From NCBI GenBank assembly GCA_048320885.1, contig JBLWFJ010000001.1, forward strand, positions 5,569,697-5,633,696: DNA of 64,000 nucleotides. Direction: 5' to 3'. This DNA comes from Nannocystaceae bacterium ST9. GTDB lineage: Bacteria; Myxococcota_A; Polyangia; Nannocystales; Nannocystaceae. Position 1 is the stretch's first letter, and every line of letters begins with the position of its first letter. Of this stretch, positions 28,745-38,102 are shown piece after piece. Made by a program: the position numbers and the translations under genes. Below the pieces are notes generated by a model that worked only from the letters and a program-made list of their open reading frames with translations, ran no database searches and was not told the origin of the DNA.

Positions 28745-29769
28745 TCTACCCGAAGAAGCGGGCCGCGATCGTCGGGGCCGGGATCGCCGGCCTGAGCTGC
28801 GCCAAGCCCTTGATCGACGCCGGCTGGTCGGTGACGCTGATCGACAAGGGTCGAAGGCCCGGCGGGCGCAGCTCGACCCGCAGGACCACGCTGACCGACG
28901 GCACCCAGACCAGCTTCGATCACGGCGCGCAGTACTTCACCGTGCGCGACCCCGGGTTCGCCGGGTTGGTCGAGCGCTGGCGCGGGCTCGGCAAGCTCGC
29001 CGTCTGGCGGCCTCGCCTGCGTACGATCGCCGGCCCGGGCTTTCGCGTGGCCGCGGGTGGCGAGCCGGTCGAAGACGACGTCGAGCGACTCGTCGCCGTG
29101 CCGGGCATGAGCGCGCTGCCGGAGCTGGTCTTGGCCGAGCTCGGCAGCGAGCGACTCGAGCTGCGGCTCGACACGCGGATCACCCGAGTTCGGCGCGAAA
29201 AATTCGAGTGGGAGATCGAGGACGATCAGGGCCGCCGCCATGGCGGCTTCGATCGCGTGATCCTGAACATGCCCGCGGCCCAAGCCGCGCCGCTGCTCGC
29301 CGGTCACGCGCCCGACCTCGAAGCGCGCGCGCTCGCGTGTCGCATGGACCCCTGCTGGGCCGTCATGGTTCGGCCCCGGCGACCGCTCGAGCTCGACTTC
29401 GACGCCGCGTTCGTGAGCGACTCGCCGCTGGCCTGGATCGCCGACAACGGCAGCAAGCCCGGCCGCCCGAGCGGCCAGAGCTGGGTGCTGCACGCCGACG
29501 CGGCCTGGTCGGAGGCCCAGCTCGAGCGCGATGGCGGCTGGATCGGCCGCGAGCTGCTGGCCGTGTTCTCGGGGCTGATCGGGCGCTCGATCGAGATCGA
29601 CGCGCTCGACGTGCATCGCTGGCGCTACGCCAAGCCCGAGCCGCTCGCCGAGGCTTGCCTGCTCTCGGAGCTCGGGATCGGGGCCTGCGGGGATTGGTGC
29701 GGCGGGCCGCGGATCGAGGGCGCGTTCGTGTCCGGGCGGGCGTTGGCGCTGGCGCTGCTGGACGGGTAG
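28741..29769 (+). CDS. NAD(P)/FAD-dependent oxidoreductase (renalase/amine-oxidase-like; GAGIAGLS dinucleotide motif)
   Basis: Real part of ORF 27616..29769 from ATG 28741, overlapping the ACAD stop (ATGA). Confidence 0.8.
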   Translation: MIYPKKRAAIVGAGIAGLSCAKPLIDAGWSVTLIDKGRRPGGRSSTRRTTLTDGTQTSFDHGAQYFTVRDPGFAGLVERWRGLGKLAVWRPRLRTIAGPGFRVAAGGEPVEDDVERLVAVPGMSALPELVLAELGSERLELRLDTRITRVRREKFEWEIEDDQGRRHGGFDRVILNMPAAQAAPLLAGHAPDLEARALACRMDPCWAVMVRPRRPLELDFDAAFVSDSPLAWIADNGSKPGRPSGQSWVLHADAAWSEAQLERDGGWIGRELLAVFSGLIGRSIEIDALDVHRWRYAKPEPLAEACLLSELGIGACGDWCGGPRIEGAFVSGRALALALLDG

Positions 29770-29911
29770 TCCCGAAGGGGGCCGCAGAGTGATCCGCGAC
29801 TCGTGCCATCATCGCGGCGTGCAAGCGGCGGCCTGGCTGGCCGAGGCGGATCCACGTCTGAGCTGACCAGGCGAGCATGCCCCCACGAGGGCCGAGATGA
29901 GCCCTGCGCCA

Positions 29912-31207
29912 TCATCCCCACCCGCCCACATCCGCTCGAAACCCCTCGGCCAGCATCATCCAACCGATCACTTCGTGAAGATCGAGCCGACTGCCGTCCC
30001 ACGTCATCGACTGCTCGCCCGAGGGCTCGGCCGTGTCGAGCCAAGCGGCGACGGCCTCGGGATCGATGCAATGGTTCGGTGCAGGCGCGATGGTCAGACC
30101 GTGGGCATTGATGAATTCGAGCTTGCCCGCCCGAACCTCGACGTGCAATTTGCCCTCGTGGACCAAGCCGTGGTGGCCAGGGCAGAGCAGCACGAGGTTC
30201 GAGATCGAGGTCTCGCCGCCTTCTGCCCACGCGTCGACGTGATGGGCCTGCAAATGCCGCGAGCGCCCGCACCCCGGTACGCGACAGCCACCGTCGCGCA
30301 GCGTCAGCGCCCGCCCGATCGCAGCCGGGATGGTTCGACGCGAACGGCCGACGTCGAGGATCTCGCCCGACTCGCCGACGCTCACGTCGACCCGCGTGGC
30401 GTCGCAGGCCAGCATTCGCGCGACATGGAGCGGCAATGGCGTGCCATCGCGCAGGAATCCACCGATCCCCTCGGAGCCGTGGGCGAGCTGTTCGGGCGTG
30501 GTCATCATGATCAGCTCGCAACCGGTGCCACGCGTGGTCGGCTTGCGCTCGAGGTAGCCACGCGCGACCGCGACCAGCGCGTCGGCTTGATCGGAGCCGT
30601 AATCCCCCGCGGGAGATTGTGGGTCGTTGGCGGCGCGGGCAGGCGTCGAATCTCCCGCGGGAGATTGCGCCATGTCCATCGCCGCTCGAACAACGAGCGC
30701 CTCCTCGGGCCCGACCTGGGCGACGATTCGAACCATGCCATCCGGGGTCTCGGTGAAGCGGGCGAATCGGCGCGGCGCTTCGCCGCCCTGCTCGGAATTC
30801 GCGTGAGCTCGGACTCGCCGCAATCCAGCGACGATCTTGTCGAGTTGGCTGGCGGTCGCGGCCTTGGCCACGTCGATCAGGGTTTGTTGGGTGGCCGGCG
30901 TAGCGGCGCGGGTGAGCGCACGAACCTTCGAGTAGGTCAGCTCACCGGCCGCGAATGCTCGATCGATCAAAGCCAGCTCACCGAGCGCCCGGGCGATACG
31001 GACATGCTCGCTGGCCGTCTTGTTGCTGGTGCCCGTCCACCAGGCCAGCCACGCGACCATCGAGACGCAGCCCGTGTCCGCCCAACCATTGCGGGCGTCG
31101 AATTCACGGATTCGACCGAGCCATGCGTGCTTGACTGCATCGACGTTGCGGGCGAGTTCGGCGATCTGCCGGGCGAGGTGTTCGATGGATTCCAAACAAT
31201 CGGCCAT
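29912..31207 (-). CDS. DUF222 domain + HNH endonuclease (13E12-repeat-type 'HNH endonuclease signature motif' protein), mobile-element-like
   Basis: ORF 29912..31210; HNH motif (…CRVPGCGRSRHLQAHHVDAWAEGGETSISNLVLLCPGHHGLVH…); internal direct repeat QSPAGDxx; lower local GC. Confidence 0.8.
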   Translation of the reverse strand: MADCLESIEHLARQIAELARNVDAVKHAWLGRIREFDARNGWADTGCVSMVAWLAWWTGTSNKTASEHVRIARALGELALIDRAFAAGELTYSKVRALTRAATPATQQTLIDVAKAATASQLDKIVAGLRRVRAHANSEQGGEAPRRFARFTETPDGMVRIVAQVGPEEALVVRAAMDMAQSPAGDSTPARAANDPQSPAGDYGSDQADALVAVARGYLERKPTTRGTGCELIMMTTPEQLAHGSEGIGGFLRDGTPLPLHVARMLACDATRVDVSVGESGEILDVGRSRRTIPAAIGRALTLRDGGCRVPGCGRSRHLQAHHVDAWAEGGETSISNLVLLCPGHHGLVHEGKLHVEVRAGKLEFINAHGLTIAPAPNHCIDPEAVAAWLDTAEPSGEQSMTWDGSRLDLHEVIGWMMLAEGFRADVGGWG

Positions 31208-31352
31208 CACGTGAATATGATATCATTGAAGCGCGCGAATGTCAAGTCGAGTCCACGATGGGCGGGTGGCCCATCGCGCTCACGCGACCGCACGGACCAC
31301 GATAGCGCGTTCGGAATGAGCAGAGGGCTGAGCTGCGAGAGCCCGGAGCTGA

Positions 31353-31493
31353 ATGATGCGACGTGTGTATGCTGCATTCGCCACCGGCGAGCTCGGCTAT
31401 TCCAAGGTTCGCGCAATCACGCGAGCGGCGACGCCCGAGACCGAGCAGGATTTCCTCGATGTTGCGACGCGGATCTCGTCAATGGCCAGATGA
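31353..31493 (+). pseudogene. Inverted partial copy (46 codons) of a DUF222-family gene N-terminal region (MMRRVYAAFATGELGYSKVRAITRAATPETEQDFLDVATRISSMAR)
   Basis: ~70% nt identity to reverse complement of 30860..30960 inside the full DUF222-HNH gene (FAAGELTYSKVRALTRAATPATQQTLIDVA); short, no domain completeness. Confidence 0.5.
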
Positions 31494-31705
31494 TTCATGA
31501 TTCGACGTGCGTGGTTCCGGGGTGTCATGCCGATGGCGTCGACCTGTCCGTGCGGGTCCCTCTGCTCGACGATGCGGGCTTGACCGATCAAATTCGAAAC
31601 GGCGGGACCTCGGCCGATGGCGTCATGCCTGCGTTCTCGGAGAATTTGATCAGCGACGAGGACCTGGTCGACCTCATCGCTTTTCTTCGCCAGATGTATC
31701 CCTGA
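31490..31705 (+). pseudogene. C-terminal fragment of a class I c-type cytochrome (…TCVVPGCHADG…GVMPAFSENLISDEDLVDLIAFLRQMYP), no signal peptide, likely remnant
   Basis: 3' end of artefactual ORF 29897..31705; cytochrome c-like C-terminal helix (MPAF…LSDEDLVDLIAFLR), non-canonical CX4CH; low-GC codons. Confidence 0.4.
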
Positions 31706-31790
31706 CCCGGCCGTGTCAGGGCCGCAGGACTGCGATCCGCGCGAACTCGCCGCGACTGAAAGCCGGCGGCCGCTCGTGGGTTCGGACGGC

Positions 31791-32324
31791 ATGGCGCGCG
31801 TGCTCGGGCTCCTCGTCGCATCGTCGTTGACCTACACCTTTCCGCTGCCCGAGAACGCGGCGGTCGTCGAGCCTGCGCCGTCGGTGGGTGCCGAGCAACT
31901 CTACACGGTCGACCCTCCCCCGGAACGACCTCCCCCGGCTGGGGTCTGGTCCGACGCCGAGAGTGAATCCTCGTCCGGAACGGCCGACGCGACCTGGACC
32001 GACGATGCCCGGCTCAGCCGCGTGCGGGTGCGGGCGAGCAAGCAGGTCAACGCTCGCCTGGTGCGTCGCTCGATCACTCGCCAGTCATTGAAGTTCGAGG
32101 CTTGCCACCAACAAGAGGGGGGCCGGCGCGGGAAGGCGAAGCTCGAGTTGCGACTGCACTTCGACGCGCAGGGCGAGCTGGTCTCGATCGAACTCCTCGC
32201 CGGCACGCTCGGCAACGCCCGCGTCAACCGGTGCGTCGCAGCGGTGCTGTTTGGCCTCGATTGGCAGGGGCTGCCCAGCCAGCGAAGCGTGGTCGACCTC
32301 GACCTCGCCCTGCGCATGCGCTGA
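31791..32324 (+). CDS. Secreted hypothetical protein with AgmX/TonB-C-terminal-like domain
   Basis: Real part of ORF 31713..32324 from ATG 31791 (MARVLGLLVASSLTYTFPLPE signal); C-terminal region resembles myxobacterial AgmX/PglI C-terminal domain. Confidence 0.55.
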   Translation: MARVLGLLVASSLTYTFPLPENAAVVEPAPSVGAEQLYTVDPPPERPPPAGVWSDAESESSSGTADATWTDDARLSRVRVRASKQVNARLVRRSITRQSLKFEACHQQEGGRRGKAKLELRLHFDAQGELVSIELLAGTLGNARVNRCVAAVLFGLDWQGLPSQRSVVDLDLALRMR

Positions 32325-32358
32325 TTCCTCGATCGGAGTACGCTCGCGTGGCCTCGCC

Positions 32359-34713
32359 ATGCCACGCGCTTCGATCTCCAATCCGATCACGGTGACCTGT
32401 CTGCTCGCGCTGGGCTGCACCGAGTCGCGCACGACCACCCGCCCCGACGACGACGCGAAGGGCGAGCTCGCCGGGCTGCCGAGCTTCGCTCGACCCGAGC
32501 CGGTCCCGCTCGCCGCCGATCAGGCGCTGCTCGTCGCGCAGATCCAGATCGAGCGGCCTCGCGAGTGGCGCTTCGAGCCGGGTGGTCGGCGGGTGGCGGC
32601 GCGGCTCGGACCGGAGTGCGGGGTCTGGCAGCTCGGCAGCGGCGACTTCCTCGGTCGAGTCGGGCCGGAGGTCGCGGGCGATCCTTGCGGGACCTGGCCG
32701 CAGAACGTGCCCTTGGTGCTGCCCGAAGACGCCGGCAACTTCACGCTCGCGCACGCCGACGGGCGCCAGCTGATGGTCGCGGGCGAGCGCTTCGAACTCG
32801 GCGGAAGCAAGCCGCTGCAGAATCGTCTGCGCGAGGGTCGACGCTATCGGGCCGCGGTGTTCAGCCCCGACGGCGCACGCCTGGCGCTCTTCGTGGCCGG
32901 CGAGCGCTCGCCCTTGACGGTCGAGATCTGGGATCTCGGGACTCGTCGACTCGCGCACGAGCTGATGGTCGAGCCCGAGGTCAACGATACGCTCACCCAC
33001 TTCTGGCTGCACTGGACCGAGCACTCGTTGATCGCCGTGGCCAGGACCAAGCCCGAGCCTTGCGACGGCGATCCAGCCACGCCCGCGCCCTACTGCGACA
33101 ACTGGTACGTCGGGCGCGGCGAGAGTCACATCGTCGAGGTCTGGCGCCACGCCGATCGAACGCCCGAACTCGTCGAGCCGATCGACGACTACTACGGGAC
33201 TCCGCGGATCGAGACGCTCTACCTCGAGCCCGATCAGCGCTGGCTGTTCGGATTGACCGAGCGGATCGAGGGTCGCAGCGGCACCGCGTTCTCGTTCTTC
33301 GAGATCCCGCTGCAGGCCGAGCCCGACGACGAGACCGCGCGGACGGGCCTGACCTGGTGGACGAATGGGCTCGATGGCCGCGGGACGCCGCCGCCGGTCA
33401 GGAGCCAGGGCTGGAGCGACGCGGTCGGCTCGAGCTTCTGGGAGGTCGAGGAGTACGGCACCGAGTACGGCGACTGGTTGAGCGCGCGCTGGACGATGCT
33501 CTCGCTGACCCCGGTGCCCGAGCGAGGCGTCGAGGTGCAATGGAGCGACGGGTCGGTGCTCGACGAGGACGTCGGCGAGCACGCCTGGCGGATCGAGTTG
33601 GCCGCGCGCACGACCTTGTTGGCCGACGTCGACAAGTGCCCGCCCAAGTGGTTGATCGACGAGGCCAGCGAGGCCGGCGAGGTGCTGCCCTGCACGAGCG
33701 ATCGGGTGGTGCCCGAGAGCTGCGAGCTGATCGACGCGAGCTGGGCGGGCGATCGAGTGCTGGTCGCCTGCGACCAGCGTTGGCTGTTGGCGAGCCTGCT
33801 GGGCGAGGCGAGCGCGGGCGATGGGCCGAGCGCGGACGCGGGCGGGATCGATCTCGCGGGCGCGCTCGAGCTGGCGCGCGGGACCGGGTCGCCGCGCCAG
33901 GTCGTCTGGGGGCCGCGCGGGATGGCGCTGTGGACCTTCGGCGAGGGCCTGCGACTCTTCGCGGGCGAGCGACTGGTCACGACCGACACCACGGTCAGCG
34001 ATCTGCATCGCGCCACGCTCGACGAGGAGCTCGACCTCGCGTTGGTTCGCACGCCCGAGGGCCTGCGAGTGGTCGACGTCGCGAGCGGCGAGCTCGGCCC
34101 GGTGTTGGCCTGGACCGAGCGGGTCGAGCACGCCGCGTTCTCGCCGGATCGTCGTCGGGTGGCGATCGCGGGCGCGAGCGAGCTCGCGGTGTTCGATCGC
34201 GGCGCGAGCTCGCCGAGCTTTCGCTCGCGCACGGGCAAGCTGGCCGGCGTGGCGTTCCGGCAAGACGGCGAGGTGCTCTGGGTCGGCGGCGCGCGGGCCT
34301 TGCCCGAGGTCCCGCTCGATCCCACGAGCGGCGAGTTGGTCGAGTCGGCGCTGCTCGATCGCGTGGCCTTCGATCGGATCGCGGCGGCCGATCTCGATCC
34401 GAGCTGGCGCTGGGCGATCGAGGAGGACGGGACGGTCCTGCGCACGATCGACGGCCAGGGCTTGCTGGTCTCGTGGGACGGCGAGTCGGCGATGAGCGAG
34501 AGCGGTTGGTTGCAGGGCTCGCCCGAGCGCTTCGATCAGCGCTTGCGGATCGGTCCGAGTCCGCTCGCGCCGGTGTATCGACTGGAGACGGTCGCGGATC
34601 AGCTCGCCCGACCCCAGCTGATGCGCGAGTTTTTTTCGGGCCAGGCGTTGCCCCGACCGAGCGTGCGGGCACCTTCGCCCACGAGCGAGCCGGCGGGCGA
34701 GCCGAAGCCCTGA
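32359..34713 (+). CDS. Lipoprotein with WD40/PD40 (TolB-like) beta-propeller repeats (FSPDGxRLA motifs), 784 aa
   Basis: ORF 32251..34713 from ATG 32359 (MPRASISNPITVTCLLALGC); the 1582-aa minus ORF over this region is a mirror artefact. Confidence 0.75.
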   Translation: MPRASISNPITVTCLLALGCTESRTTTRPDDDAKGELAGLPSFARPEPVPLAADQALLVAQIQIERPREWRFEPGGRRVAARLGPECGVWQLGSGDFLGRVGPEVAGDPCGTWPQNVPLVLPEDAGNFTLAHADGRQLMVAGERFELGGSKPLQNRLREGRRYRAAVFSPDGARLALFVAGERSPLTVEIWDLGTRRLAHELMVEPEVNDTLTHFWLHWTEHSLIAVARTKPEPCDGDPATPAPYCDNWYVGRGESHIVEVWRHADRTPELVEPIDDYYGTPRIETLYLEPDQRWLFGLTERIEGRSGTAFSFFEIPLQAEPDDETARTGLTWWTNGLDGRGTPPPVRSQGWSDAVGSSFWEVEEYGTEYGDWLSARWTMLSLTPVPERGVEVQWSDGSVLDEDVGEHAWRIELAARTTLLADVDKCPPKWLIDEASEAGEVLPCTSDRVVPESCELIDASWAGDRVLVACDQRWLLASLLGEASAGDGPSADAGGIDLAGALELARGTGSPRQVVWGPRGMALWTFGEGLRLFAGERLVTTDTTVSDLHRATLDEELDLALVRTPEGLRVVDVASGELGPVLAWTERVEHAAFSPDRRRVAIAGASELAVFDRGASSPSFRSRTGKLAGVAFRQDGEVLWVGGARALPEVPLDPTSGELVESALLDRVAFDRIAAADLDPSWRWAIEEDGTVLRTIDGQGLLVSWDGESAMSESGWLQGSPERFDQRLRIGPSPLAPVYRLETVADQLARPQLMREFFSGQALPRPSVRAPSPTSEPAGEPKP

Positions 34714-34758: not shown

Positions 34759-36948
34759 ATGTCGGGCCTCGTCCGAACTACCTCGCTCTCGCTCGTCTGC
34801 CTGTTCGCCGCCGCATGCCACCGCGACGGCGCGCCGATCCCCGAGACCCCCGACGGTAGCAAGCCGATCGCCGAGGTCGAAGGCGGCGGGGCCGAGCTCT
34901 CGATCGTCGCGGTGCCGCAGGTGTCGGCCGGCGATCCCTACAACTGGCTCTTCGAACCGGGCGGTCGTCGAATCGCGTCGGCCGAGCTCGGCGAATGCAC
35001 GATCTGGGACGTCGAGAGCGGTCGAACGCTGCGCAGCCTCCCGCTCGATCCGGTCCCGCAGCCCTGCGCCGAGTGGCTGCCGCCGCTCGGAGTCTACGAG
35101 TTCGTCCGCAACGCGGGCTCGGCCGACGGCAAGCTCGACATCGCGGGCACGGACATCGTCGACGCCGAGTCGGGCAACACCCTGCGCAGCCTCGCGTGTC
35201 GGACCTGTGCCGACGCCGACATGTACACGTGGTCGGCGAGCGGTCACCAGCTCGCGTTCTTCTGGATCGAGTCGCGGCGGCTGGAGATCTGGGACGCCGA
35301 CTCGGGCAAGAAGCTGCGCTCGGAGACCCTGCCGGGCTCGGCCGAGATCGAAGATTCGATGCTGACCTGGCCGGCCGTGGGCCCGCTCCTGCTGACGGTC
35401 TCGCTCGGCGATCCGGTCGATTGCGACGAGGACATGGGCCTCGATTGCGACTACGACGAAGAGGGCAACCCGCTGCCGCATCAGGCGAGCGAGCGGCGTG
35501 GCTGGCTGGCGGCCGGCAAAGACTTGGTCGAGCTCGAGCTCGGCATCAATCAGGGCACGGTCGACGAGCTCTCGCTCGATCCCGAGGGCCGCTGGTTGTT
35601 CTGGACCTACTCGTGGGAAGAGCGGCGCGACGGGACCAGCACGATCGTCGAGTTCATCGGGCTCGACGATCGGCCGAGCGGGATGAGCGGCGAACACACC
35701 GAGAGCTACGGCGAGTACGAGGGGTCGATGACCCGCGAGGGCCAGTGGCGGATCGACGGCGCGACCCACTGGGCGGTCACGATCATCGCCGATGGCTACG
35801 AGGGTGGGCTCGAAGCCATCGGTTGGGAGACCACGCTGACTCAGCCGGCGCTCGGCCGGCGCTGGGGCGAGGTCGCCGACGATCCCGGTTGGGAGGCCGA
35901 GGTGGAGGTCGAGCTGTTCGGGTTCGTCGACGGGGCGCTCCGCTTCGGAGGCCAGCTCTGCGAGCGCGAGTCGTGCAAGCCCTTGGGCCCCGAGCTCCCG
36001 CCCGACTGTTTGATGCTCGACATCGGGTCGAACCACGGCAGCGAGCTGCTCGACTGCGGTGGTCGTGTTCACCTGCGCAGTCGGGCAGGGCTGAGCTTGC
36101 TGCCGCTCGACGCCGGCTCGGCGTTCTGGTGGTGGTCGCGCGGCGGCGCGCTGGTCATCGAAGACGGGGCGACCTTCATGGTCCTCGACGCGGCGAGCGG
36201 CAAGGTCGGTCTGCAGCGCAGCGACATCGGCGAGGTCTACGACGGCAAGCTCGGGCCCGAGCTCGATCGTCTGGTGCTGGTCGGCGAGCAGGGCGTCGAG
36301 GTCCTCGATCTGACCAAGCTCGCCGTGATCTGGAAGCAGCCCGACGACGCGCTCGAGTTCGCGTTTTCGCCGACCGGCGATCGTCTGGCCCTGCTCGACG
36401 CCGAGGGGATTCGGGTGATCGAGCTGGCCAGCGGCAAGCAGACCGCCGCCTGGGAGGCGCCGGTCGAGCAGCTCGCGTTTCGCCAGGACGGCGCGGTGAT
36501 CTACGTCGGCGGAGACTACCCCGTGGCCGGCTTCGACGTTGCGAGCGGCGAGCCGGTCAACGATCCGCTCTTGTTCGCGAAGATCCTCGAGGCGGTCGAT
36601 CAGGGCGGCGAGATCGATCCGAGCTGGCGCTGGATCATGCACGACGAGTTCGGCGAGCTGCTGCGCACCGTCGACGGCCGGACGATCGAGTGGTTGGACG
36701 AGGGCGCGTGGCTGCCCGACTCCGGCCAGTACGGCGGCAAGGGTCCGGGTCTCGAGCTGGCCTTCCGGGTCGGCGACGATGCTTGGGGCGTGCCCGAGTT
36801 CGACGCCCAGCAGCTCGCCAAGTGGTTGCAGATCGGCGATCTCGAGCAGGTGTTCCTGTCCGGGCAGGCGATCGCCAAGCCGAAGATCACGGCCGGCGAG
36901 CTGCAGGGCCTGCGCGCGAAGGTGCAAGGCAAGGGCAAGACGCCGTGA
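34759..36948 (+). CDS. Paralogous WD40/PD40-like beta-propeller lipoprotein (729 aa)
   Basis: ORF 34759..36948 (MSGLVRTTSLSLVCLFAAAC); shares C-terminal region with upstream paralog (…IDPSWRW…LRT(I/V)DG…). Confidence 0.75.
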   Translation: MSGLVRTTSLSLVCLFAAACHRDGAPIPETPDGSKPIAEVEGGGAELSIVAVPQVSAGDPYNWLFEPGGRRIASAELGECTIWDVESGRTLRSLPLDPVPQPCAEWLPPLGVYEFVRNAGSADGKLDIAGTDIVDAESGNTLRSLACRTCADADMYTWSASGHQLAFFWIESRRLEIWDADSGKKLRSETLPGSAEIEDSMLTWPAVGPLLLTVSLGDPVDCDEDMGLDCDYDEEGNPLPHQASERRGWLAAGKDLVELELGINQGTVDELSLDPEGRWLFWTYSWEERRDGTSTIVEFIGLDDRPSGMSGEHTESYGEYEGSMTREGQWRIDGATHWAVTIIADGYEGGLEAIGWETTLTQPALGRRWGEVADDPGWEAEVEVELFGFVDGALRFGGQLCERESCKPLGPELPPDCLMLDIGSNHGSELLDCGGRVHLRSRAGLSLLPLDAGSAFWWWSRGGALVIEDGATFMVLDAASGKVGLQRSDIGEVYDGKLGPELDRLVLVGEQGVEVLDLTKLAVIWKQPDDALEFAFSPTGDRLALLDAEGIRVIELASGKQTAAWEAPVEQLAFRQDGAVIYVGGDYPVAGFDVASGEPVNDPLLFAKILEAVDQGGEIDPSWRWIMHDEFGELLRTVDGRTIEWLDEGAWLPDSGQYGGKGPGLELAFRVGDDAWGVPEFDAQQLAKWLQIGDLEQVFLSGQAIAKPKITAGELQGLRAKVQGKGKTP

Positions 36949-38102
36949 AATCGGCGAGCTGGTTGCTCGCATCGCTCGGCGTGCTCGGTGCGGCGCTGAT
37001 GTTCGCCGACGCAGGCTCGGCCACCAGCCCCGCCCGCGCGCCGATGTCCGCGATCGAGTCTGCGAGCAAGTCCGCGACCAAGTCGATCCTGGTCATGCCG
37101 GGCCCTGGCAAGGGCCCGCGCGCCGCCGATCGCCTCGATCGCAACGACGACTGCGTGGCCTGTCACGCCGACGTGGCCAGCGAGTGGTCGCACTCGCTGC
37201 ATCGCCAGTCGTTCGACGATCCGATGGTCCAGGTCGCGCTCGATCGAGAGCACGCGCCCGGGTTCTGCCGATCCTGTCACGCGCCCGAGGCCGACCCTCG
37301 CCACGAGCCCTCGAAGCGGGCGGCCGCGGCCGGGGTCGCGTGCGTCACCTGTCACCTGACCGGTTCGAGCGACGAGGTGCTCGCGTCGCCCAAGTCCGGC
37401 GTCGACGATCGGCTCGTCCCGCACGCGCTGCGCCGCGAGGCCGCGTTCGCGAGCGCCGACGCGTGCGGGGGCTGCCACGAATTCTGGTTCCCCAGCGACG
37501 GCCGAGTCGGGCACGAGCTCAAGATGCAGCGGACGCTCGCCGAGCACGAGCGCTCGGCCTTCGCCGACGAGAGCTGTCAGGACTGCCACATGGTGCCGAT
37601 GCGCTCGGGCGGCCGGGTCCATCGCGGACATCGCTTCACCGTCGCGGGTGAACCGGCCACGCTGCGCGCCGCGGTGACGATCGACGCGTCGCGACCCGAG
37701 CCCGGCCGCGTGGTGCTCTCGCTCTCGCCACGCCTGGTCGGCCACGCGTTCCCGACCGGCGATCTCTTTCGCCGGATCGCCGTCGAGGTCCACGCCGCGG
37801 GCGAGGGCCCGGCCTGGTCCGATCAACGCCTGCTCGCCCGCCACTTCGCCGGTCAGCGAGTCGGCGCGGGCCAGGTCATCAAGATCGAGCGCGACGACGA
37901 TCGGATCGGGATCGGCAGCGGCCCGCGCGTGGTCGAGTTCGAGCTGCCGGCCGAGCTGCACGATCGAGCGATCCGCTGGTCGCTGCATCACGAGCAGGTC
38001 TTGGAAGCTTCGATCGGCGCCGAGCATCGGGCCGAGGTCTGGGATCGCACCGAGTTCGCGAGCGGGACGCTGAGCCCCGCTCAGCCGGCCGGCAGTCGAT
38101 GA
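36945..38102 (+). CDS. Pentaheme c-type cytochrome (5x CxxCH: CVACH, CRSCH, CVTCH, CGGCH, CQDCH) with signal peptide
   Basis: C-terminal real portion of ORF 34995..38102 from GTG 36945 overlapping upstream stop (GTGA); signal VKSASWLLASLGVLGAALMFADA. Confidence 0.8.
   Translation: MKSASWLLASLGVLGAALMFADAGSATSPARAPMSAIESASKSATKSILVMPGPGKGPRAADRLDRNDDCVACHADVASEWSHSLHRQSFDDPMVQVALDREHAPGFCRSCHAPEADPRHEPSKRAAAAGVACVTCHLTGSSDEVLASPKSGVDDRLVPHALRREAAFASADACGGCHEFWFPSDGRVGHELKMQRTLAEHERSAFADESCQDCHMVPMRSGGRVHRGHRFTVAGEPATLRAAVTIDASRPEPGRVVLSLSPRLVGHAFPTGDLFRRIAVEVHAAGEGPAWSDQRLLARHFAGQRVGAGQVIKIERDDDRIGIGSGPRVVEFELPAELHDRAIRWSLHHEQVLEASIGAEHRAEVWDRTEFASGTLSPAQPAGSR

Follow-up and report, generated by a model that had tools for sequence, protein, structure and literature searches.

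A window of 64,000 nt from the genome of the myxobacterium Nannocystaceae bacterium ST9 was found to carry, on its minus strand, a gene which is clearly a member of the DUF222-HNH (REP13E12-like) family and which has an unusually high copy number in this host. The window here means the whole of that stretch, and coordinates refer to it unless another locus is named. The explanation which best accounts for the gene and its surroundings together, and to which a probability of about 60% is given, is that a copy of a dispersed repeat lies beside the relic of another copy and a cytochrome c gene truncated by deletion, with DUF222 being a ParB-like domain which acts on palindromes internal to the gene. 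To our knowledge, no function has been assigned to DUF222 since the sequencing of the Mycobacterium tuberculosis genome.

The intact gene has 431 codons plus a stop and extends from an ATG at 31207 to 29912 (minus strand), with an alternative GTG start at 31210. Its product is 100% identical to MFV8753505.1 (P0122) of Nannocystaceae bacterium ST9. Both domains scored above their Pfam cut-offs, with 81.4 bits (cut-off 24.4, E 9.7e-23) for DUF222 (PF02720) and 30 bits (cut-off 21.4, E 5.9e-07) for HNH (PF01844), in agreement with an earlier sequence-only reading of this DNA, which had described a complete minus-strand gene of this architecture. The HNH nuclease motif (30158–30292, minus strand, residues 306–350) has the form C-x4-C ... 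HH ... N ... C-x2-HH, with the family-invariant HNH/zinc residues all being kept (C308, C313, H318, H322, H323, N337, C342, H345, H346, and H350). Scans of the product against Pfam, NCBIfam, and PHROGs returned the DUF222 and HNH families only and no known transposase class, and the gene had no match among known defence systems. A sequence search of the PDB gave a match confined to the HNH part, to IscB. No known RNA families were found within 29500–32000. The G+C content of the host genome is ~70%, and a dip to 0.60–0.65 was measured across 30800–31800 compared with 0.70–0.74 in the surroundings, as had been expected from the earlier description of lower-GC DNA.

At least 33 paralogues of the window protein were identified in ST9, on three contigs and with 88–94% amino acid identity, most of them being full length. 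They fall into clusters of 21, 2, 2, 7, and 1 members, nearly all ST9, with a truncated protein (P0021) in addition. The ST9 paralogues were compared at the protein level, the ST9 DNA read being that of the window. The repeated unit could be delimited in a related metagenome-assembled genome (MAG), Myxococcales bacterium SOY_6_C_metabat_27 (~75% amino acid identity), which possesses 22 loci, of which many lie at the ends of contigs. On the basis of all-against-all BLASTN and an nhmmer profile, the unit common to the MAG copies starts ~55 nt before the ATG and ends 11 nt after the stop codon (..CAGGATGAGATCCACTCCC); the copies are 86–93% identical at the DNA level and their flanks are unrelated. 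The sequence-only reading had proposed a selfish element and had advised a search of the genome for other DUF222-HNH copies and shared termini, and these paralogues and loci support the placing of the gene in a selfish-looking, multi-copy element family. The MAG paralogues show dN/dS values of 0.16–0.22 at dS 0.17–0.29, and the copies are therefore old with their coding capacity under selection. One MAG locus (L004) has a full copy nested in an older copy in the opposite orientation, with 6 bp duplicated; the point of nesting reads ..AAGGTTCGAGC|..|TCGAGCGCTCACG. At this locus and two others (L013 and L015) relic pieces are broken beside palindromes.

For the ST9 lineage a minimum extent of the unit was obtained (29844–31262, minus strand). 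Its 5′ limit was set by nhmmer and by alignment to the MAG copies, and its 3′ limit by L115, a copy of 92% identity from a different sample which is alignable to 29844 (68 nt beyond the stop), where the L115 contig ends; the 3′ end in this lineage therefore lies at or beyond 29844. A short hairpin is present in the 3′ flank which the two copies share, perfect in L115 at ~930–950 (GCTGACC-TCT-GGTCAGC) and degraded in the window at ~29860–29880, and this may be a terminator or a feature of the unit end.

The promoter of the gene was located at 31217–31245 (minus strand) and consists of TTGACA, a 17-nt spacer and a TG-extended TATCAT, with 11 of 12 sigma-70-type matches (0.1 expected). It is the sole promoter-like site in 29600–32000 and its end is 9 nt from the ATG, which makes the mRNA nearly leaderless. 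All MAG copies carry a counterpart in their upstream 55 nt (TTGACA-17-TAAAAT, ending 6 nt before the ATG). The perfect 10-bp palindrome ATGATATCAT, which had been reported upstream of the gene start and proposed as an operator, is present at 31217–31226. However, it is the TG-extended −10 element of this promoter, and the homologous promoters of the MAG copies are not palindromic, which leaves the operator role unsupported.

Internal direct repeats had also been noted in the gene, and these are present as 19-nt matches of 95% identity at 30601 and 30649, with a spacing of 48 nt. Both were found to be palindromic as well (two matches, with 0.1 expected). The first palindrome (30601–30618, AATCCCCCGCGGGAGATT) has one mismatch and the second (30649–30666, AATCTCCCGCGGGAGATT) is a perfect 18-mer; both encode SPAGD and lie in a linker which is predicted by AlphaFold to be disordered (residues 185–205). 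The site of this subfamily is thus an 18-bp palindrome, AATCTCCCG-CGGGAGATT, centred on CCGCGG. It was rejected as a genome-wide REP-like repeat, the HNH gene being its sole location in the 64-kb window.

The site is a recurrent feature of the family. One or two palindromes are present at the same position in each of the MAG copies, and SPAG[DE] occurs in every relative of >65% identity, while a subfamily at 55% identity has (D)VSAET or ASAEA instead of SPAGD, with the DNA reading CGCTTCCGCGGAAGCG or ACGTTTCCGCGGAGACGT. The family site can be described as a palindrome of 16–20 bp on CCGCGG with the consensus ACGTTTCCG-CGGAAACGT (joined form ACGTTTCCGCGGAAACGT). At least one 16-bp site with the CCGCGG core was identified in 72 of 82 metagenomic relatives (35–67% amino acid identity), the total being 120 sites compared with 10–22 in shuffles. 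Perfect palindromes of at least 14 nt numbered 77 in the Open Reading Frames (ORFs) ±100 nt (137 kb) and six in 218 kb of flanks. The sites are found at ~nt 540–620, at ~nt 745–800, near the 5′ or 3′ end or ~100 nt upstream, and are linked to the gene throughout.

Variants of the arms are symmetric, with both arms altered together (TGTTCCGCGGAACA, CGTTCCCGCGGGAACG, AGGCTTCCGCGGAAGCCT, AATTTCCGCGGAAATT, and ACGTTTCAGCTGAAACGT). Inside the sites GTT makes up 89% of valine codons (13% elsewhere) and GAA 98% of glutamate codons (31% elsewhere), and selection therefore acts on the nucleic acid and not on the peptide. Sites with one mismatch show no sense-strand wobble bias (26 vs. 17), which argues for a site in duplex DNA over an RNA hairpin, and the hairpin reading was rejected on this ground.

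The N-terminal part of the product was predicted to be a helical domain with a DNA-binding fold of the ParB/Noc/KorB type (codons 8–136; 30800–31186, minus strand), containing a putative helix-turn-helix at about residues 79–98 (..GELTYSKVRALTR..). The AlphaFold model, made from a 44-sequence alignment, has a pLDDT of >90 for residues 8–136. When this model was compared with the PDB using Foldseek, the top 11 matches were all Noc/ParB DNA-binding domains, with 6y93_A being aligned over 104 of 105 residues (probability 1.0, target-normalised TM 0.65). The ParB/Srx CTP-binding domain (PF02195) gave no match to the N-terminus even at E 10, and beyond DUF222 and HNH there were two weak sub-threshold Pfam matches. 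As modelled, this is the likeness of one domain to ParB and not membership of the ParB family.

The candidate site also resembles those of ParB-type proteins. The parS site is TGTTTCAC-GTGAAACA and the Noc site NBS is TATTTCCC-GGGAAATA (PMC7383237). The DUF222 half-site CGTTTCCG (xGTTTCCG) agrees with parS in GTTTC and with NBS in TTTCC, in both cases in the same register when counted from the dyad, and 5 of 8 positions are shared in register with each. Like ParB, Spo0J, Noc, and KorB, the protein combines this predicted fold (residues 8–136) with a palindromic site, the known ones (parS, NBS, OB) being 13–16 bp long. Some parS sites sit in or beside the gene for ParB itself, and the position of the DUF222 site in or beside its own gene is a further likeness. 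The DUF222 protein differs in having no CTPase/Srx domain and no ParA partner, in being fused to HNH and in showing no sequence-profile relationship to these proteins. With moderate confidence, the DUF222 domain may be taken to bind the palindrome.

It could instead be supposed that the encoded protein does not bind the CCGCGG palindromes, these being RNA hairpins for attenuation or processing, attB-type serine-integrase sites as in phiRv1/REP13E12, or structure-prone hot spots. The integration of phiRv1 into REP13E12 lends this some weight, as do the large insertions which the palindrome-bearing linker often carries in relatives. However, the absence of a sense-strand wobble bias does not fit with hairpins, and there are no integrase genes beside the copies examined, nor an integrase or prophage next to the window copy. 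The variable position of the site (upstream, internal, or at the 3′ end), which is nevertheless gene-linked, and a half-site resembling parS and NBS in register, in a gene whose own N-terminal domain has the matching predicted fold, speak against it as well, and it is regarded as unlikely. Recognition of the palindrome by the DUF222 domain is accordingly the reading followed here.

Some further observations were made on the palindromes and the linker. On a Rhodococcus erythropolis plasmid (NZ_CP050126.1) the copy has CGTCCCCGCGGGGACG ~100 nt upstream (L113, 1305–1320), in an operator-like position, and none inside the ORF. Matches to distant members (e.g., P0271, P0273, P0304, and P0339 of 587, 797, 739, and 837 aa, respectively) are split at query residues ~180–206, and many such members have insertions of 100–400 residues exactly in the palindrome-bearing linker. 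A second recurrent class of palindrome, of 12 nt (GCGTCGCGACGC / GCGTGGCCACGC), is found at many metagenomic loci at ~nt 275–293 of the gene, over codons of the putative recognition helix (..KVRA..). Codon usage may have produced this class incidentally. The nested insertion at the MAG locus L004 sits in GAGCGCTC, the MAG counterpart of this class.

The remains of a second DUF222 copy were identified on the plus strand (31332–31478), head-to-head with the intact copy and with 70 nt between the two. Searching the six-frame translation with a profile of 111 family members gave a match of 147 nt to profile positions 75–122, the putative helix-turn-helix region (E 8.5e-18), with an in-frame TGA at 31350–31352, and nhmmer gave a match at 31373–31467 (E 7e-10). 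In a 46-codon plus-strand ORF (31353–31493), positions 31374–31466 correspond to residues 85–115 of the HNH gene with 74% amino acid identity (tblastn, E 1e-8), and DNA identity to that gene is ~74% over 62 nt. However, the relic is 86% identical to P0024, a protein of the second DUF222 subfamily which is also present in ST9, compared with 74% to its neighbour, and is a remnant of another paralogue and no inverted duplicate of the adjacent gene. The 46-codon fragment had been described as an inverted, ~70%-identical copy of the DUF222 N-terminal region; the fragment and its similarity stand, while its origin from the neighbouring gene does not. No DUF222 similarity was detected with the family profile in 29770–29911, on the opposite side of the intact copy, and insertion of the intact copy into an older one could not be shown for this reason. 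The stretch 29812–29860 (..AAWLAEADPRLS) was considered as the upstream half of the relic and was rejected, the best E in a profile search of the six frames of 29650–29935 being 0.6.

Directly beyond the relic lies the remnant of a cytochrome c gene (31472–31705, plus strand), which comprises the whole mature haem domain with its CVVPGCH motif and the stop, and which has no lipoprotein signal peptide or acidic linker. Cytochrome_CBB3 (PF13442) was matched over 71 residues with 32.2 bits (cut-off 27, E 1.3e-07), covering profile positions 3–68 of 68. Six homologues (P0144–P0149; 127–137 aa, 65–71% identical to the remnant) all share the same layout, namely a signal peptide ending in LAPLGC, a linker rich in D, E, and T and a haem domain from ..(P)D(L/I)(A/V)NGQ onwards. 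Homology of the remnant starts at DLVNGQ (31472), the missing part being ~47–58 codons in the homologues, and no signal peptide, lipobox, or linker was found in any frame upstream of this position. The remnant had been taken for a C-terminal fragment of a c-type cytochrome with no N-terminus or signal peptide. The signal peptide is indeed absent, but with the haem domain complete it is more than a C-terminal piece. The haem motif of this family of small lipoprotein cytochromes is CX4CH (C-A-V-[AG]-G-C-H in all six homologues) and not the canonical CXXCH.

The two remnants meet at a single breakpoint. The homology to DUF222 stops at ..LDVA(T) and that to the cytochrome sets in within ~5 nt, so that one junction (31467–31472) connects the interior of the relic (~residue 117–122) with the cytochrome gene at about its codon 52. 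The result is a chimeric ORF of 129 codons (31316–31705, plus strand; P0143), annotated by the National Center for Biotechnology Information (NCBI) as a "c-type cytochrome," whose first ~52 codons are the relic region read out of frame and encode no signal peptide. The attachment of c-type haem needs export, and the 129-aa product is for this reason most likely non-functional. The annotation should be corrected to that of a chimeric remnant without an export signal.

It has also been considered whether this ORF is a functional gene born by the deletion, encoding a cytochrome-like protein which is cytoplasmic or otherwise exported. The haem domain is uninterrupted, the CX4CH motif and the region of the Met ligand are kept, and the gene is annotated by NCBI. 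However, the N-terminus has neither the signal peptide nor the lipobox by which haem attachment would be expected to proceed, the motif (CVVPGCH, 31514–31534) departs from the CAV[AG]GCH of all six homologues, and a 2-residue deletion follows it. A functional product is thus thought very improbable, and the ORF is treated here as a remnant. An open frame of 602 codons (29897–31705, plus strand) runs antisense to the HNH gene and continues into the cytochrome frame. It is an artefact of high G+C, and it leaves the cytochrome remnant without an upstream stop, hence annotatable with a false N-terminus.

The position of the breakpoint bears on how the region came about. Judged from the layout of the homologies, the scar is best read as a deletion or illegitimate recombination between an older DUF222 copy and the cytochrome gene, and not as an insertion of the intact copy. 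In the simplest history, a copy of the second subfamily would have lain upstream of an intact cytochrome gene, and a deletion reaching from inside that copy into the cytochrome gene would have removed all that lay between. The 5′ boundary of the intact copy (~31262) is 210 nt from the junction, and so this copy did not cause the damage to the cytochrome gene. At the locus of the closest amine-oxidase orthologue (L110; 71% amino acid identity, upstream gene 94% identical) alignment extends to window position 29735, beyond which the genes are unrelated. The earlier description of the region as a rearrangement scar is supported in that it sits at this synteny break, and locally it is an ordinary scar of that kind.

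The sequence-only reading had gone further in suggesting that a homing-endonuclease-like element had disrupted an earlier gene, that is, that the intact HNH gene was inserted into the cytochrome c gene. It could point to a truncated gene adjoining a gene for an HNH nuclease, to the lower G+C content and to the multi-copy nature of the family. However, the cytochrome is fused to the interior of the relic and not to the end of the intact copy, its missing 5′ part is not to be found across the element (29770–29911 having neither cytochrome nor DUF222 similarity), and there is no intron or intein context and no recognisable target site. No empty allele was found, relatives losing synteny at 29735. 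This account was already disfavoured and is considered improbable. Free-standing HNH homing endonuclease genes are similar in being compact, selfish-looking HNH genes with a promoter of their own. The DUF222-HNH genes differ from them in occurring as dozens of diverged copies per genome with no intron, intein, or phage context, and in having no known asymmetric target, their candidate recognition site being inside the DUF222-HNH gene itself. For the window, deletion between the older copy and the cytochrome gene thus remains the preferred history.

A mechanism can be proposed which would connect the palindromes with scars of this kind. The protein would bind the palindrome as a dimer, both on its own gene and on the paralogues. 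In a more speculative step, DNA close to the bound site would be nicked or cut by the HNH domain tethered there, and repair of the break would then lead to gene conversion, to inversions and deletions and now and then to an ectopic copy, with the copies of the family behaving as recombination hot spots. Break repair at the copies would explain why relics and truncated neighbours are found, as in the window. The cutting step would fit with the MAG relics being broken beside palindromes (L004, L013, and L015), with the variable number of palindromes per copy and with the hot spots of M. tuberculosis, and HNH cutting near the sites with repair-driven rearrangement is nonetheless speculative. Alternatively, binding might serve in autorepression of the gene, as with KorB.

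The 13E12 repeats of M. tuberculosis are among the strongest hot spots of gene conversion and inversion, are SOS-induced and have no defined function (PMC13061034; PMC13157036). A wider reading is put forward as a tentative one, which we hold to be somewhat short of an even chance: DUF222 would be a ParB/KorB-like domain with a parS-like palindrome in its own coding sequence, and the DUF222-HNH genes as a whole (~12,000 clusters at 50% identity) would be self-recognising nuclease elements which cut at or near family sites and use break repair to spread or to become homogenised. If true, this would provide a mechanistic explanation for the 13E12 repeats as extreme hot spots of gene conversion and inversion. 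The ParB-like domain, together with a palindrome kept against codon preference, makes the function of these repeats directly testable. A literature search for the palindrome, a ParB-like fold or a function of DUF222 returned nothing relevant; the search was incomplete and prior knowledge is possible.

A number of results weigh against the explanation favoured here. The structure is a prediction with an overall pTM of 0.38, in which the N-terminal domain alone is confident, and no sequence-profile link of DUF222 to the helix-turn-helix families of ParB was detected. The pairing of one residue in the 'AA[R/Y/S]E' helix with the outer site bases (R where −7 is G, Y or S where −9 to −7 read ATT) is suggestive and counts in favour of the explanation, but it is confounded by phylogeny. 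A clear site is missing in 10 of the 82 relatives and in a mycobacterial plasmid copy. The breakpoint between relic and cytochrome is not at a CCGCGG palindrome, and the window's own breakpoint is thus left unexplained by the cutting step. The exact ends of the unit in the ST9 lineage are uncertain, with only the minimum extent being set. Terminal inverted repeats of the window copy scored 11 compared with 10.9 ± 2.0 in shuffles, no consistent target-site duplications were found among the MAG copies, and the 5′ ends of these are ragged. Finally, no element-free orthologous site was found among L110, Pseudenhygromyxa (L112) and the loci of the cytochrome homologues (L023–L027), with L112 and L023–L027 not being syntenic.

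Evidence on the mobility of the unit is mixed. The MAG unit has imperfect inverted ends of 23 nt (GGTGTGGTTCCCATCCTG..CACGC compared with the 3′ end in reverse complement), and none of 5000 shuffles reached their score. In the window copy an 11-nt match (CCACCCGCCCA) was considered as an inverted terminal repeat and was rejected, not being above shuffles. The family comprises 12,054 clusters at 50% identity (E ≤ 1e-10), and was found in 4 of 72,556 plasmid records and in 1 of 50,697 phages. Fragments of 130–200 nt from the 3′ end of the unit, with that end intact, lie inside MAG contigs (L018, 4001–4176; L020, 997–1128) and represent 5′-truncated copies, a pattern which is more typical of copy-by-synthesis than of cut-and-paste mechanisms.

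Insertion sequences are comparable in that the unit has a single ORF and is ~1.4 kb long and dispersed, with truncated and nested copies and, in the MAG lineage, the imperfect inverted repeats. Unlike them, it encodes no DDE, HUH, serine, or tyrosine transposase, its copies are 86–94% and not ~100% identical, target duplications are not consistent, and inverted repeats are not significant in the window copy. A closer parallel is found in the REP13E12 repeats of M. tuberculosis and other Actinobacteria, which have the same architecture of PF02720 and PF01844 (DUF222 with or without HNH) and a similar unit size (~1.3–1.4 kb), and which are likewise multi-copy, dispersed, associated with rearrangement and of no defined function. 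The present copies differ in having a myxobacterial host (Nannocystaceae), in numbering at least 33 in ST9 compared with 7–19, and in having no prophage at the copies examined. CCGCGG palindromes and a ParB-like fold are unmentioned for REP13E12 in the literature searched.

The mixed evidence leaves room for a non-mobile alternative, in which the DUF222-HNH genes are an expanded family of cellular paralogues (e.g., SOS-induced factors of recombination or genome plasticity, or an as yet uncharacterised nuclease acting in defence), multiplied by duplication and maintained by selection; the scar would then result from ordinary recombination of paralogues. Purifying selection on paralogues 6–12% diverged would be expected from such a family, and the ragged 5′ ends with no consistent target-site duplications, the great rarity on plasmids and phages and the tendency of the M. 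tuberculosis repeats to recombine rather than transpose are all in keeping with it. However, it does not readily explain a shared unit which is gene-sized, has its own promoter and sharp ends and occurs in unrelated contexts, nor the 5′-truncated fragments inside contigs and the nested copy with its 6-bp duplication, and known defence systems gave no match. This alternative is rated as rather unlikely, and a dispersed repeat remains the preferred description of the unit.

Beyond the scar, two plus-strand ORFs of 820 and 729 codons (32251–34713 and 34759–36948, respectively) have similar C-terminal stretches (..DPSWRW..LRT(I/V)DG..) and look like tandem paralogues. Several CxxCH motifs are found at ~36950–38102 (plus strand), in the C-terminal part of the frame 34995–38102, which suggests that a multihaem cytochrome is encoded a few kb downstream from the monohaem remnant.

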